4,063 bases of DNA. Source: a virus (taxonomy: Duplodnaviria > Heunggongvirae > Uroviricota > Caudoviricetes). Location of the stretch: the IMG/VR virus record IMGVR_UViG_2711768068_000007. One strand, written 5' to 3'. This document shows, one piece after another, positions 155 to 4,063 of this stretch (position 1 is its first letter; every line of letters starts with the position of its first letter). Both the position numbers and the translations under genes were made by a program. The notes below the pieces were generated by a model, which saw only the letters and a list, made by a program, of their open reading frames with translations, did not search any database and was not told the origin of the DNA.

Positions 155-508
155 TTATCGTCGCCGGTTAACTGCGGGTGGTTGCCCACGGTTGAGCCAG
201 AGATAACAACTCCCTCCGTCATCCGGAGAAACACGGTCCACCCAGAACATCTCGCCGTTAATGGTCAGCGTGTCACCACGCCGCACGGCACGCACCGTAT
301 CCGTCCGCACAAATAATGACGGACAGCTTCCTTCAATACGGACCCCGCTACCGGCAAACCCCAGCGACTCCGGATCGTCAAAAACCCCCTGAACTTCGCT
401 GCCACACTGTGCCCCCGAGGTGAACTGCGCACAGAGCCCCATCACTTCAACAATCGTGCTGTCCACCCCGGCAAGGGCAGCATCAAAGGCATTCTGAAAA
501 TCACACAT
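155..508 (-). CDS. FII: Head-tail joining / head completion protein FII (lambda gpFII-like), 117 aa
   Basis: ORF track 155..508 (-). The translation shares long identical stretches with remembered lambda gpFII (GVFDDPE, SPSLFVRTD, RRGDTLTI, FWVDRVSPDDGGSC, LWL.RG.PPAVNRRR) and has the same length. ATG at 508..506; TAA stop at 157..155. Confidence 0.9.
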   Translation of the reverse strand: MCDFQNAFDAALAGVDSTIVEVMGLCAQFTSGAQCGSEVQGVFDDPESLGFAGSGVRIEGSCPSLFVRTDTVRAVRRGDTLTINGEMFWVDRVSPDDGGSCYLWLNRGQPPAVNRRR

Positions 509-884
509 GCTCAGCCGTTCCGTGCTGTATCATGGCTGTCGCCAGTGGTGATGGCACCAGAACACGCATGCCCCGGTACGTCAGTTCAACGGGACGGCCT
601 GTCTCCGGGCAATACCCCATCACATGCAGGCATTTCCGCACACGGACCGCTTTAACATCATCCGTAGCATCAGTGTTGTGCAACTGCTCACCATCGTCTG
701 TGTGATTTTGCTCAGGCCCGCTCTCATCACCAGGCATAATGCCCTCCCGGGAAGCAGCAAGCTCCTCTTCCCACTCAGACACACGTTGCGCAATATCCGC
801 AGCACTCCCCGACATATCCGCCTCGCGCCCCAGCAGGCCAGCCAGTTGACGAAGACGTTTCTGATTTTCTTCTTTTGTTGCCAT
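501..884 (-). CDS. FI: DNA-packaging / head assembly protein FI-like, 127 aa
   Basis: ORF track 501..884 (-). It sits between E and FII exactly as lambda FI does and is of similar size (~130 aa); sequence similarity to my remembered lambda gpFI is only weak, so the call is mainly positional. ATG at 884..882 is preceded by a G-rich SD (AGGGGG) with 5-nt spacing. Its stop (TGA 503..501) overlaps the FII start (ATG 508..506). Confidence 0.7.
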   Translation of the reverse strand: MATKEENQKRLRQLAGLLGREADMSGSAADIAQRVSEWEEELAASREGIMPGDESGPEQNHTDDGEQLHNTDATDDVKAVRVRKCLHVMGYCPETGRPVELTYRGMRVLVPSPLATAMIQHGTAEHV

Positions 885-910: not shown

Positions 911-930
911 GGGAGGGGCATTTCGCCCCC
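911..930 (-). promoter_or_regulatory. GC-rich hairpin in the E-FI intergenic region, followed on the mRNA by a U6 tract; possible weak attenuator, RNA-stability element, or SD-sequestering structure for FI
   Basis: On the minus-strand transcript: GGGGC-GAAAU-GCCCC (plus-strand 915..929), then UCCCCGUGUC, then UUUUUU (plus-strand aaaaaa 901..906), then the FI SD AGGGGG and ATG at 884. The C-rich segment could alternatively pair with the FI SD. Confidence 0.25.
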
Positions 931-939
931 GCTCACGGA

Positions 940-1968
940 TTATTTCACCTGCACCACCACAAACTCATCCGGATCCGGCAGCACCATCAGCGGTGCGGAC
1001 TGCGTCATGGTAAATTCACGGGCCGGATCGCCCACGGTCAGCCAGTGTTTCGGGTAACGGGAAGAAGCCACCACACCTTCGGACAACGCCTGCGCATCCT
1101 GAATGGCACCGTAACAACGGATCCCATCTGCAGCCGTATTTCCCAGGACCAGCGTGCCCTCCGGCAGATAACGTTTTTCGGTACCGTCCTCTGCCACATA
1201 AGACGTTTTCGCCACCACAATGGCCAGATCGCCGTAATACCCTTTGAAAGACACCACCGCCCCCAGGTCTTTCACTGCCGTTTCGAGTTGTGAATTTGAG
1301 CCGCGACGGGTATCCAGTTTTTCGCGGAACAGCTTAAAACCATTCAGCAGACGCCAGACAGTACCGTCCATAATGGCAATATTCACAAGACCGCTGGCCT
1401 GATCGCAGTAGAGGTCAATATCATGCGTCGGATCAAACGTATCACGGTCCTGCTCAGACCATTTTTTACCGTCGGCCTGCTCAATGTTATTTCCTTCAGA
1501 GCGTCCAAAATCCACCTCGACAGTATCAAACTGATCCCCTTCCATGGTGTATTTGCCATACAGCACGGCATTCACCGCCTGCATTTCTTCCACCTGGACA
1601 ATGGCATGCTCTTCCTGTTTGAGGTTATCGGTGATGATACGCAGACGACGGTAGGCCGGGTCGTTCAGTTGAGCCGGATCTTCACCGGGAAGACGCTCAA
1701 CCGCCTGCTGGTAATTAAATTCGTGTTTCGGCTTGACGTAGCCCGGACGTAACACGCGGGTTTCACCACCGCGATGACGCAGCACTTTTCCTTCAACAAC
1801 CGGGGAGACATAGGCCGCCACCGGCGTTTTTCCGGTAATTTTGTCCAGCATCACCTCTTCGGTATGGAAATTCACCGTACGGCGGAAAAACAGCTCCAGA
1901 AACAGCGCACGAAATTTCACTTTTTGTTCGGTATAACCGAGTAACTGGCGGGTCGTAAACAATCCCAT
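940..1968 (-). CDS. E: Major capsid protein E (lambda gpE-like), 342 aa
   Basis: ORF track 940..1968 (-). Extensive identity with remembered lambda gpE across the whole length (e.g. PGYVKPKHE, AYRR.RII, QVEEMQAV.AVL.GKYTM, KLDTRRGSNS.LETAVKDLG, GDPAREFTM.QSAPLM.L.DPDEF) and almost identical length (lambda 341 aa). ATG at 1968..1966 with SD AAGGA about 8 nt upstream; TAA stop at 942..940. Confidence 0.95.
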   Translation of the reverse strand: MGLFTTRQLLGYTEQKVKFRALFLELFFRRTVNFHTEEVMLDKITGKTPVAAYVSPVVEGKVLRHRGGETRVLRPGYVKPKHEFNYQQAVERLPGEDPAQLNDPAYRRLRIITDNLKQEEHAIVQVEEMQAVNAVLYGKYTMEGDQFDTVEVDFGRSEGNNIEQADGKKWSEQDRDTFDPTHDIDLYCDQASGLVNIAIMDGTVWRLLNGFKLFREKLDTRRGSNSQLETAVKDLGAVVSFKGYYGDLAIVVAKTSYVAEDGTEKRYLPEGTLVLGNTAADGIRCYGAIQDAQALSEGVVASSRYPKHWLTVGDPAREFTMTQSAPLMVLPDPDEFVVVQVK

Positions 1969-1996
1969 AAATCAGTTCCTTTCATTCAGAAATCAG

Positions 1997-2018
1997 TCAG
2001 GCCACCGCGGTGGCCTGA
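1997..2018. promoter_or_regulatory. Perfect 22-nt palindrome (tcaggccaccgcggtggcctga) in the D-E intergenic region; potential RNA hairpin (9-bp stem, 4-nt loop) or dimeric protein-binding site
   Basis: The sequence is identical to its reverse complement across 1997..2018. It lies between the D stop (2026) and the E start (1968), about 28 nt upstream of the E ATG on the transcript. No U-tract follows it, so it is not a canonical intrinsic terminator. Confidence 0.4.
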
Positions 2019-2025
2019 TAACGTG

Positions 2026-2373
2026 TTACGGCAGCGCCGCGTGACTCAGGGCACTGCCGGCAAAGGCATTTGCCTTTTTGTGTTCATCCACACTGTCAGG
2101 CCAGCGGATTGCCTCCGTCGCAAAGGTCCCCGACTTGTAATAGGTCAGTACCGTCTCTGTGCCTTCAAGCGGCAGTACCAGTATGCCAACTGCACTACCG
2201 GCTTTCTGTCCGTCCCAGACCACCAGTTTCCCGCTGGCTTCATCCAGCATCAGGGGCGTCAGTGCCGGTGTTGCCGAGGAAATCCCGCTGCTGCCTGTGG
2301 CGGTATGAGCCGGATCATTACCGGCAAAAATACGTACTTCCGCACGCTGTTCAGTGATGTTTTTCGTTACCAT
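2026..2373 (-). CDS. D: Head decoration protein D (lambda gpD-like), 115 aa
   Basis: ORF track 2026..2373 (-). Strong match to remembered lambda gpD (DPAHTAT, TPLMLD, KLV.WDG, AVGIL, YKSGTF, AFAG). ATG at 2373..2371 preceded by SD AGGAGG (plus-strand cctcct 2383..2388) at 9-nt spacing; TAA stop at 2028..2026. Confidence 0.93.
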   Translation of the reverse strand: MVTKNITEQRAEVRIFAGNDPAHTATGSSGISSATPALTPLMLDEASGKLVVWDGQKAGSAVGILVLPLEGTETVLTYYKSGTFATEAIRWPDSVDEHKKANAFAGSALSHAALP

Positions 2374-2409
2374 ATTGTAAAAACCTCCTGTTGATGGTCA
2401 GCACTGACT

Positions 2410-3012
2410 TCATGGCATGGCCATGAGCATTTTCACGTCCGCATCACCGTCTGCTGACGTCTGTGGCACGCCACCCTGTACCGCAGCCGGTGAATGGTTC
2501 GCCATGATGCGTTCAAACAGGGCGGTTGTGGATGCAGAGACCGGTTCTGCCTTACCTGATCCCGCAGCCAGCACAGCCCGGGCGCTCTCCACAGTCATTC
2601 CCGGGCAGGCAGCCAGCTGTTCAGCCTGCGCCTCAGCCCCTTTTGCCTCATCCAGTGCCATGATCTGATCACGGAGTGAGGGTCCGGCATCCGCCTGCGG
2701 TGAAGCAGCCAGGATCGGGCGGGCTTTTTCCACCGTCATCTCCGGCATCGCCGCCAGCGTTGCCGCCAGTTGTTCACGACCGTTCGCTTCTTCACACGCC
2801 ATAATGCGATCGGCTTCACTCTGCGTGGATGCCACCGGCTGCTGCGGTGCCGCCGCGGCCAGAATCGCCCGGGCCTGTTCAACGCTCATGCCCTGTTGTC
2901 CTGCCAGCATCGTGGCAAGCTGTTCACGTCCTTTCGCTTCCTGGCATGTCAGGATCCCCATCACTCGCTGGTTCTCCTGCGCGGCGGCTTCCGTTGCAGT
3001 TAATTGCGGCAT
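2410..3012 (-). CDS. Nu3: Nu3-like scaffolding protein, nested in-frame within the 3' part of gene C (200 aa from an internal ATG)
   Basis: Internal ATG at 3012..3010 is in the same frame as the C ORF and is preceded by a strong SD (minus-strand GAGGAGG, plus-strand cctcctc 3017..3023) 4-5 nt upstream. The product begins MPQLTATE..., aligning with where lambda Nu3 starts (MTKETQSTT...) inside gpC. In lambda, Nu3 is encoded in-frame within the 3' third of C (established knowledge). Confidence 0.7.
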   Translation of the reverse strand: MPQLTATEAAAQENQRVMGILTCQEAKGREQLATMLAGQQGMSVEQARAILAAAAPQQPVASTQSEADRIMACEEANGREQLAATLAAMPEMTVEKARPILAASPQADAGPSLRDQIMALDEAKGAEAQAEQLAACPGMTVESARAVLAAGSGKAEPVSASTTALFERIMANHSPAAVQGGVPQTSADGDADVKMLMAMP

Positions 3013-3585
3013 AGTGCCTCCTCTGACATTACTGTTCAGCGCCGTGGCCATCACACTGATGGCATCCGACGCATTGACTAATTCATCCGCCAGCCCGGCA
3101 TCAATGCCGGACTGACCTTCAAAAACGGCGGCCTCTGTTCCCGTGACGGCATCAACAGACAGACCGGTAAACATCGCCACTTTTTCGGCAAACATCCGGC
3201 GCGCCGCATCAATGCGCTGCTGCATGTCCTGGCGAACCTCTGCCGGTAAGGCTTCAAACTGATTGCCATCCACCTTGTGCGTCCCTGAGTAAATCAGCGT
3301 GATATCCACACCGGCCTGCGCCAGATGACCGGCATAGCTGACATGGCTCATCATCACGCCAATGGAGCCGATACGGGATGTCTGGGTAACCAGCCGTCGG
3401 GAGCAGGCCGACGCCAGCAGCATGGCTGCAGAACAGGCCGTGTCATTGCACAGTGCCCAGACCGGCTTCTGCTGACGGAGGCGGTAAATCATGTCAGCGC
3501 AGTCAAACGCGCCGGCGGCCTGCCCGCCCGGACTGTCAATGTCCAGCAGTACGCCCCGCACCTGGCTATCCGCCATTGCCTGCAC
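2410..3585 (-). CDS. C: Head maturation protease C (lambda gpC-like, S49/ClpP-fold serine peptidase), C-terminal portion: protease core plus scaffold domain. Appears to be the downstream piece of a frame-disrupted C gene
   Basis: ORF track 2410..3585 (-), 391 aa, opening at a GTG with no SD. Matches remembered lambda gpC from about ...QQAASDPMVDGILLDMDTPGG onward (here QAMADSQVRGVLLDIDSPGG, AGAFDCAD, KPVWAL.ND..CSA..LLASA.SRRLVTQT.R.GSIGVMM, ITLIYSG.HKVDGN, GLSV, TEAAV, IDAGLADELVN). This frame is open only back to a TGA at 3612..3610, so it cannot be joined to the N-terminal piece without a frame change. Confidence 0.8.
   Translation of the reverse strand: MQAMADSQVRGVLLDIDSPGGQAAGAFDCADMIYRLRQQKPVWALCNDTACSAAMLLASACSRRLVTQTSRIGSIGVMMSHVSYAGHLAQAGVDITLIYSGTHKVDGNQFEALPAEVRQDMQQRIDAARRMFAEKVAMFTGLSVDAVTGTEAAVFEGQSGIDAGLADELVNASDAISVMATALNSNVRGGTMPQLTATEAAAQENQRVMGILTCQEAKGREQLATMLAGQQGMSVEQARAILAAAAPQQPVASTQSEADRIMACEEANGREQLAATLAAMPEMTVEKARPILAASPQADAGPSLRDQIMALDEAKGAEAQAEQLAACPGMTVESARAVLAAGSGKAEPVSASTTALFERIMANHSPAAVQGGVPQTSADGDADVKMLMAMP
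2512..2967 (-). repeat. Three diverged tandem in-frame repeats (~141-159 nt each, 47-52 codons) within the Nu3/scaffold coding region, plus the start of a fourth copy
   Basis: Protein-level repeats seen in the translation: R.MGILTCQEAKGREQLATMLAGQQGMSVEQARAILAAA / RIMACEEANGREQLAATLAAMPEMTVEKARPILAAS / QIMALDEAKGAEAQAEQLAACPGMTVESARAVLAAG, followed by RIMAN. DNA-level similarity is visible on the plus strand (caagctgttcacgtcctttcgcttc near 2917..2941; ccagttgttcacgaccgttcgcttc near 2767..2791; ccagctgttcagcctgcgcctc near 2604..2625). Unit boundaries are approximate. Confidence 0.7.
3017..3023 (-). promoter_or_regulatory. Strong Shine-Dalgarno sequence (GAGGAGG) for the internal Nu3 start codon
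   Basis: Plus-strand cctcctc at 3017..3023 is GAGGAGG on the minus strand, 4-5 nt upstream of the in-frame ATG at 3012..3010 inside the C reading frame. Confidence 0.6.
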
Positions 3586-3859
3586 CCAGCCGGTGCACCA
3601 GCGTGCCGGTCACCGGCAGTACAGCAATACCGTTCACCACCCTGTAAACACGGGCCGGTCGTTTACCTCCGGCCATGTACTCGTCCGTTTCAGCCAGCAT
3701 TCCGGGAGCATCAAACTGTACCTGCTGTTGTGGTACCGAAAGACTTGCTGCCCCCATCTCGCGCCCGAGCGCGCAAAAGAAAACCCGCGCATAGGCGGGC
3801 TCCAGAAGCAGCGGTTCATTGAATGCTGCGGCAATAATGTGTGAAAGATTACGTCTCAC
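3566..3859 (-). CDS. C: Head maturation protease C, N-terminal fragment (97 aa), terminated prematurely by a frame break
   Basis: ORF track 3566..3859 (-). The translation (RNLSHIIAAAFNEPLLLEPAYARVFFCAL...NGIAVLPVTGTLVHR) matches the remembered lambda gpC N-terminus (LRNLPHIASMAFNEPLMLEPAYARVFFCAL...NGIAVLPVSGTLVSR). GTG start at 3859..3857 with SD AGGAG (plus-strand ctcct 3870..3874) about 10 nt upstream; it overlaps the end of B. Ends at TAG 3568..3566 after the non-homologous tail LGAGNGG. Confidence 0.75.
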   Translation of the reverse strand: MRRNLSHIIAAAFNEPLLLEPAYARVFFCALGREMGAASLSVPQQQVQFDAPGMLAETDEYMAGGKRPARVYRVVNGIAVLPVTGTLVHRLGAGNGG

Positions 3860-4063
3860 GTGGTGTTGTCTCCTCTTCCGGCCTGCGACTCTCCGCTATC
3901 TGCTGCTGATACGCCTGCGCTATCCACACCGGACGTGAGAGTCCGGCTTTTTCCCGCTCTGCAGATTCCCTGACCTGCTGGCGGAAAATGTCCTGATAAT
4001 CCTCGCCCATCAGCGCCAGCTCTTTCTCATACGTGCTCAGTCCGGCCTCAATGCGCATCACCG
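3849..4063 (-). CDS. B: Portal protein B (lambda gpB-like), C-terminal ~70 codons; the 5' end runs off the window end
   Basis: ORF track 3849..4061 (-), with the frame open to the window edge. Located immediately upstream of C, with its stop (TAA 3851..3849) overlapping the C start, as in lambda where B and C overlap. The acidic C-terminal tail is consistent with my recollection of the gpB C-terminus, but the call is mainly positional. Confidence 0.75.
   Translation of the reverse strand, partial: VMRIEAGLSTYEKELALMGEDYQDIFRQQVRESAEREKAGLSRPVWIAQAYQQQIAESRRPEEETTPRET

Follow-up and report, generated by a model that had tools for sequence, protein, structure and literature searches.

In the window, that is, the whole 4,063-nt stretch of DNA analysed here, three units of 53, 47 and 52 codons follow one another on the minus strand at 2512-2967, in the C-terminal scaffold part of a C-type head gene. 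The best explanation, to which we assign a probability of about 0.75, is that the window carries a phage 21-type protease/scaffold pair with three ancient duplicates of a foldable docking module. The identification of the region as the scaffold part of a phage 21-type gene 5/6, complete with its Tri boxes, is close to certain, and the role proposed below for the units is considerably less so.

Head module of the window and its counterpart in phage 21

All long ORFs of the window lie on the minus strand and form a head module of the lambda type (Table 1). The synteny of portal, C/Nu3, D, E, FI and FII is present, the downstream genes being recognized by Pfam and the upstream portal gene as annotated in relatives. 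Upstream of the scaffold region, residues 36-183 of the 391-aa ORF matched the Pfam family Peptidase_S49 (PF01343; E = 3e-35), and C matched PHROG 53, head maturation protease, with E = 2.8e-177. The PHROG matches for the scaffold gene were phrog_8399 ('head scaffolding protein') and phrog_8940 ('capsid assembly protein'). The internal ATG of the window aligns with the gene 6 start and ribosome-binding site annotated in two phage 21 records, M81255.1 and OL657228.1 (CPT_21_06). Judged by sequence, 2410-3012 is a Nu3-type scaffold gene with a putative internal start, as in phage 21. The original prediction had put the units into the scaffold (Nu3) domain of C, and this placement is upheld by the S49 domain and by the portal, D, E, FI and FII neighbours.

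Table 1. Features of the window. Amino-acid numbers of the units and of RIMAN are those of the 391-aa minus-strand ORF at 2410-3585.
Feature	Position in window	Strand	Remarks
Portal gene, 3' end (lambda B / phage 21 gene 4)	3849-4063	-	overlaps the start of C
C-type gene (phage 21 gene 5 / lambda C homolog)	2410-3859	-	S49 prohead protease and C-terminal scaffold region
ORFs making up C in the window	3566-3859 and 2410-3585	-	the latter of 391 aa
Shine-Dalgarno GAGGAGG	3017-3023	-	4 nt upstream of the internal ATG; read from the sequence
Nested in-frame scaffold gene (phage 21 gene 6 / lambda Nu3 homolog)	2410-3012	-	200 aa; ATG at 3010-3012; co-terminal with C
Unit 1	2809-2967 (aa 207-259)	-	53 codons; RVMGILTCQEAKGREQLATMLAGQQGMSVEQARAILAAA then linker; core = Tri1 box, 2842-2945
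Unit 2	2668-2808 (aa 260-306)	-	47 codons; RIMACEEANGREQLAATLAAMPEMTVEKARPILAAS then linker; core = Tri (Tri2) box, 2695-2805
Unit 3	2512-2667 (aa 307-358)	-	52 codons; QIMALDEAKGAEAQAEQLAACPGMTVESARAVLAAG then linker; core = Tri3 box, 2551-2664
C-terminal tail	2410-2511	-	33 codons and stop; starts with RIMAN at aa 359
Head decoration gene (lambda D / phage 21 shp)	2026-2373	-	directly downstream of C; Pfam HDPD, E = 3.2e-24
Major capsid gene (lambda E / phage 21 gene 7)	940-1968	-	Pfam Phage_cap_E, E = 6.3e-67; presumed assembly partner of the scaffold
FI	501-884	-	Pfam Packaging_FI, E = 1.5e-14
FII	155-508	-	Pfam Phage_attach, E = 6e-17

In the intergenic segment between D and E, at 1997-2018 on the minus strand, GC-rich arms of 9 bp pair perfectly into a hairpin (TCAGGCCAC CGCG GTGGCCTGA), and a T-rich tract comes next. 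A 'putative rho-independent terminator' is annotated at the equivalent place in N15, and within the late operon the hairpin may serve as an attenuator or influence mRNA stability.

The C region was 98.8% identical in DNA to gene 5/6 of phage 21. As in the window, phage 21 gene 5/6 has an internal start with a ribosome-binding site, three units at equal positions, and portal, shp/D and major capsid genes as neighbours. The gp6 of phage 21 differs from the window scaffold at five amino acids over 200 aa; its gp5 comprises 501 aa (head-tail preconnector gp5, scaffold gp6), whereas the protease part of C is 56 bp shorter in the window. The phage 21 entry M81255.1, 'Bacteriophage 21 head gene operon', contains three repeat_region features within gene 6, which bear the names Tri1 box, Tri box and Tri3 box and the note 'function unknown; putative'. 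When translated, these boxes proved to be exactly the cores of the three units. The triplication was already known, having stood in the GenBank entry of phage 21 since the early 1990s, and the source of the Tri boxes is presumably Smith and Feiss 1993, Gene 126:1. The other phage 21 record, OL657228.1, carries two 'CII binding site' annotations (ttgynnnnnnttgy) at 2409-2422 and 2643-2656, on the antisense strand in gene 6. These look like bare consensus matches, and they do not recur once per unit.

Three diverged units and the reliability of their count

The three consecutive diverged copies that had been predicted at 2512-2967 were recovered with exactly these coordinates. BLOSUM62 local scores between the units were 101, 87 and 91, as compared with shuffle means of 25-28 (z = 15.5, 10.9 and 12.8), and the unit profile gave three matches of 77-87 bits on the window gp6. 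The gap-free 105-nt cores of the units were 66, 58 and 62% identical in DNA, with codon-shuffle z values of 5.9-14.9. The copies are related, as had been claimed, and their core identity of 58-66% is slightly below the 60-70% given in that claim. The longest near-exact DNA seeds shared by the units measured 12-15 nt and were spaced 141-156 nt apart. Tandem Repeats Finder detected no array in 2400-3050, because the copies are too diverged. A recent slippage minisatellite, which would be expected to show a DNA identity of at least about 70% and to be detected by that program, was rejected in view of the core identities and the blank result.

Ala makes up 23% of the scaffold region, in which Gln and Glu are also abundant, and this helix-prone composition, together with the silence of Tandem Repeats Finder, might suggest that the periodicity is a by-product of composition and not of duplication. 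However, none of 2000 composition-preserving shuffles reached the observed unit-pair scores, the codon shuffles agreed at the DNA level, and the unit profile finds the module in hundreds of other proteins; the similarity is significant beyond what Ala, Gln and Glu content yields, and the probability left to the compositional explanation is negligible. Only marginally more probable is that the repeat has been kept for a function of the DNA or RNA, be it binding sites, an antisense gene or a structured RNA. The two CII pattern matches annotated opposite gene 6 in OL657228.1 and several antisense ORFs of 42-103 aa overlapping the region would speak for such a function. Against it, the CII sites are plain consensus matches, and the conservation between units resides chiefly in codon positions 1 and 2, which are 66-83% identical, whereas position 3 is near random at 37-40%. 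A search of Rfam with both strands gave no match, and a promoter and terminator scan found nothing in the repeat and no promoter-like site beyond chance within 2410-3100.

The window is the whole of contig CYFV01000069.1 from the draft assembly GCA_001284225.1, and at two places it departs in length from its relatives. At 3583/3584, C lacks 56 bp as compared with all relatives, so that it is split into two ORFs and measures 1,450 bp with a frameshift, as against 1,506 bp in the relatives. The contig has an N at 3584, exactly at the break, where the window shows A, and the junction created by the gap was absent from 5,426 complete E. coli genomes, from GTDB genomes and from metagenomes. A real 56-bp deletion making C a pseudogene was rejected on account of this N and of the junction being found in no other genome. 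Position 3584 is most likely a scaffold join in the draft and not a real frameshifting deletion, and the organism itself probably has an unbroken protease gene. A second N, at 914, stands within GGGG-N-GGGG at 910-918 (A in the window), where the contig has a 4-bp surplus over E. coli O55:H7 CB9615 between the FI start and the E stop; it is a second assembly join, at which overlapping ends were left unmerged. Both anomalies are read as scaffold joins because the Ns coincide with them. Complete genomes carry up to 5-6 copies of the head module, and the contig ends probably break where near-identical lambdoid prophages made the assembly ambiguous.

Since the window is an entire draft contig with Ns at two length anomalies, one may ask whether the count of three units is itself an artefact, produced by collapse or expansion in a short-read assembly. 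The repeat lies wholly inside the N-free piece 915-3583, and the 721-bp region was matched end to end, at equal length, in 1,865 of the 5,426 complete E. coli genomes, with the phage 21 records matching as well; therefore, the unit count is not an artefact, short of an extremely improbable coincidence. Units that share seeds of no more than 15 nt are, moreover, too diverged to collapse, and the suspicion that the tandem repeat forms an assembly-collapse hotspot is of no concern at the identities observed here.

Unit 3 is the most diverged copy. At 2626-2634 of the window it reads G-A-E, in contrast to the K-G-R-E turn with its nearly invariant Arg elsewhere: the phage 21 type has Ala in unit 3 and Arg is found in all other units, including unit 3 of the Salmonella homologs. 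The loss of Arg may reflect functional divergence of unit 3, which, without this residue, may not be equivalent to units 1 and 2.

The tail that follows unit 3 begins with RIMAN, which had been taken for the truncated start of a fourth unit. The motif is present at that place, but it is not the remnant of a fourth copy: the similarity of the tail to the units was insignificant (z of -0.4 to 0.9), and a like motif occurs in the single-unit protein of lambda. At the RIMAN point, phage 21 has FEHFMANH, the Salmonella homologs FDQFMQLH and lambda LDRLMQGA, and lambda, N15 and phi80 have an equivalent tail after their single unit. The aligned tails identify the helix-1-like motif after the last unit as an ancestral tail feature, because it is already found in proteins that never triplicated. 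The tail is predicted to form one weak helix and then to be disordered (pLDDT 43-60).

Copy number and age of the units among relatives

Three units are the standard state of the phage 21 head module and are not peculiar to the window. Among the 40 matches listed from complete E. coli genomes, all but two consisted of a single ungapped piece, and the three-unit region was found in 19 phage records at a DNA identity of at least 94.8%. When the three-unit sequence was used as a query, 115 phage records gave any match, and at least 80% of the query was covered in 20 of them; among the matches listed, most of the remaining records (lambda, 434, HK630 and Stx1a-converting phages) matched over about 50 aa, while the phi80/mEp237 group matched over about 83 aa in two pieces and N15 over 39 aa. 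Explicit counts gave one unit each for lambda, N15 and phi80, and three each for phage 21, the CB9615 prophage and Gifsy-1. The statement that lambda has about one such unit was thus made precise, since alignment, unit profile and explicit count all gave exactly one.

To place these counts in the wider family, a profile built from 15 units was searched against 1.84 billion representative proteins, and 986 of these were matched at an E of 0.001 or better. A recount of the best 149 of the 986 yielded 137 proteins with one unit, 9 with two and 3 with three; of the recounted proteins of at least 380 aa, 59 out of 60 had a single unit. The median distance from the end of the last unit to the C-terminus is 48 aa in the family. 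Pfam detected an S49 domain upstream of the unit in all of the 10 long representatives scanned, and no Pfam model covers the unit in these or in the scaffold region of the window. The frequencies given here were taken from the representative search, the complete E. coli genomes and the phage records; a word-indexed protein search mostly gave gene fragments and was used for two- and four-unit variants, not for frequencies. The original prediction had been set against the possibility that three units are the ordinary state of this protein family. They are ordinary in the phage 21 lineage, as the 1,865 genomes indicate, but the norm of the wider family is one unit, and by these sequence counts the triplication is a trait of one lineage.

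Rare natural variants with two or four units show recombination at the level of the unit, in line with the view that the tandem units are recombination sites. The protein P0020 has two units, one of them a precise hybrid of units 1 and 2 (…GMSVEQAR joined to PILAAS…), as an unequal crossover at a short shared word might produce. Unit 2 is absent from P0016 and P0021, which also have two units. These natural two-unit variants are mostly fragments, and they suggest that three copies are perhaps not strictly required. P0027 (E. coli, a cluster of 48 member sequences) has four units, with 83-88% identity among units 2-4; this indicates a recent further amplification, unlike the ancient triplication in the window.

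Some unusual proteins came up among these matches. In P0001 (283 aa), the first ~75 residues of C are fused to the end of the protease region (…VYRVV joined to NSNVRGGTMPQL…), with the S49 domain gone and three units kept; it is probably the product of a decayed prophage. In P0135 (582 aa) and P0147 (844 aa), tail protein L or a tape-measure domain is attached to the S49-scaffold protein; both are probably chimeric gene calls or misassemblies and not real fusions.

Lambda gpC/gpNu3, N15 gp5/gp6 and phi80 gp5 share with the window the S49 protease, the nested co-terminal scaffold, the unit and then a tail of 38-45 residues, as well as the gene order. They differ in having one unit instead of three and a low-complexity segment of ~55 residues before the unit, as compared with 13 residues in phage 21. 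Lambda C measures 439 aa, as against 501 aa for gp5 of phage 21, and the DNA identity between these phages and the window is too low for megablast. In contrast, Gifsy-1 (STM2605.Gifsy1) and related S49 peptidases of Salmonella prophages have three units in equal order, orthologous by position to those of the window, at 53-61% identity (53.5% for Gifsy-1), and their unit 3 keeps the GRE that is lost in the phage 21 type.

The start of nu3 in the lambda record NC_001416.1 deserves a remark. RefSeq begins the gene at Met239 of C (201 aa; 2333 in the lambda sequence compared), ahead of which there is no Shine-Dalgarno sequence, whereas Met309 (2543 in that sequence), which would give 131 aa, follows a well-spaced AGGAGG and is aligned with the gene 6 starts annotated in phage 21 and N15. 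From this comparison, the RefSeq start looks doubtful.

When the units of nine multi-unit and single-unit proteins were clustered, all first units grouped with the single unit of lambda, and in every three-unit protein the best match of each unit lay in another protein and not in its own neighbour. Between E. coli and Salmonella, orthology follows the position of the unit. Since the units cluster by position, the triplication is older than the divergence of the E. coli and Salmonella lineages, and the units have not evolved in concert. The clustering further identifies unit 1 as the positional ortholog of lambda's single unit. The claim that the units arose by old in-frame duplications and not by recent slippage is borne out by these same-position relationships and by the low identity at third codon positions. 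An alignment of 20 homologs, with identities as low as 46%, showed an invariant hydrophobic core in each unit and little change in its turn motif, most of which was invariant too, and the pattern of conservation points to protein-level selection on all three.

Predicted fold and possible role of the unit in prohead assembly

AlphaFold2 modelled the 200-aa scaffold with a mean pLDDT of 67 and a pTM of 0.27, from a shallow alignment of 20 sequences. In this whole-scaffold model each unit appeared as three short helices with pLDDT 74-80, and the linkers at 58-63 and 153-159 (scaffold numbering) and the tail fell below pLDDT 50-60. Unit 1 modelled alone, with the unit alignment, reached a pLDDT of 88, with helices at 2-8, 17-24 and 31-40. 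Helical prediction for each unit, which had been suggested as a check, thus returned a small three-helix bundle each time, with flexible linkers between. The units are predicted to be independently folded beads on a flexible string, their mutual arrangement not being fixed. Helix 1 would carry the xDRIMA motif, an exposed E-A-K-G-R-E turn would lead into helix 2 (REQLAxxLA), and a P-G-M-T loop would precede helix 3 (VEQARxILAA), the Pro/Ala/Gln-rich linkers probably remaining flexible. The lambda protein gpNu3 is reportedly of substantial helicity, and it is said to unfold cooperatively at low temperature and to be in a weak monomer-dimer equilibrium.

A sequence search of the PDB with the 200-aa scaffold gave a chance match only (E = 1.3), and Foldseek with the whole-scaffold model found nothing in the PDB below E = 1.6, a blank to be expected because the model is flexible, multi-modular and of low pTM. 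Among the closest known systems are tandem modules of three-helix bundles, namely the staphylococcal protein A domains, the UBA/CUE domains and RuvA domain III. The scaffolding protein gp8 of P22 has a C-terminal helix-turn-helix coat-binding domain, a two-helix hairpin that occurs once, at the extreme C-terminus, and P22 is without a prohead protease. We regard this domain as a working analogy only, in that both it and the unit would be small and helical, with exposed basic residues near the C-terminus of a flexible scaffold; the PDB sequence and Foldseek searches found no sequence or fold similarity between the gp8 domain and the scaffold.

The module, of about 40 residues, occurs once in nearly all other S49 prohead protease/scaffold proteins. 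Nu3-type scaffolds are otherwise diverged, and this module is the only block conserved among them; it always lies in the part common to protease and scaffold. We propose that the unit would dock the scaffold, and the protease that shares its C-terminus, inside the assembling prohead; candidate partners are the major capsid protein, the portal or other scaffold molecules, and the exposed, nearly invariant E-A-K-G-R-E turn would be the likely contact surface. In the phage 21 lineage, each scaffold chain would then present not one docking site but three. The two extra units appear to take the place of the low-complexity spacer of lambda, N15 and phi80 and, therefore, part of their effect may be simple chain length. 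The flexible linkers would be likely cut sites of the prohead protease for the later removal of the scaffold. In PMC3224144, lambda Nu3 is described as interacting with B, C, E and itself (with E by two-hybrid), as needed for portal incorporation, and as a scaffold that is removed by the protease during prohead maturation. Medina et al. 2011, by its title, presents gpNu3 as an intrinsically disordered yet functional assembly catalyst, and the predicted beads-on-a-string arrangement fits this title. We would give docking combined with multivalency somewhat less than an even chance. A more far-reaching version is tentative and, in our estimate, less likely than not: the unit would be a discrete three-helix docking element of lambda-family scaffolds and of the protease tail, whose copy number of 1-4, changed by unequal recombination, would set valency and hence scaffold-to-coat stoichiometry or kinetics.

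The duplicates could alternatively be of little consequence, with only unit 1 at work, units 2 and 3 tolerated as spacers that provide chain length, and copy number of little functional meaning. The missing Arg in the KGRE turn of unit 3 is what one would expect of such a spacer, as is the natural occurrence of two-unit variants (P0020, P0016 and P0021); lambda, N15 and phi80 also have about 55 Ser/Thr/Ala/Gln-rich residues before their single unit, and phage 21 has no such segment. However, a mere spacer should decay to low complexity, as it has in lambda, whereas the hydrophobic core and most of the turn have been kept in every unit down to 46% identity while third codon positions became saturated, and units 2 and 3 of the Salmonella homologs retain GRE. 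We consider the spacer explanation unlikely on this evidence, and prefer the three ancient duplicates of a foldable docking module.

As a discovery, the triplication carries little weight, being the common allele in E. coli and Salmonella prophages. What the survey adds is the one-unit norm, the range of one to four copies, and a small, autonomous three-helix module, as predicted, without a Pfam model. The unit offers a starting point for working out how scaffolds and prohead proteases of the lambda type dock in the prohead, which has been poorly defined so far. If the proposed role is true, the copy number of the unit, from 1 to 4 in nature, could tune scaffold valency and prohead assembly.
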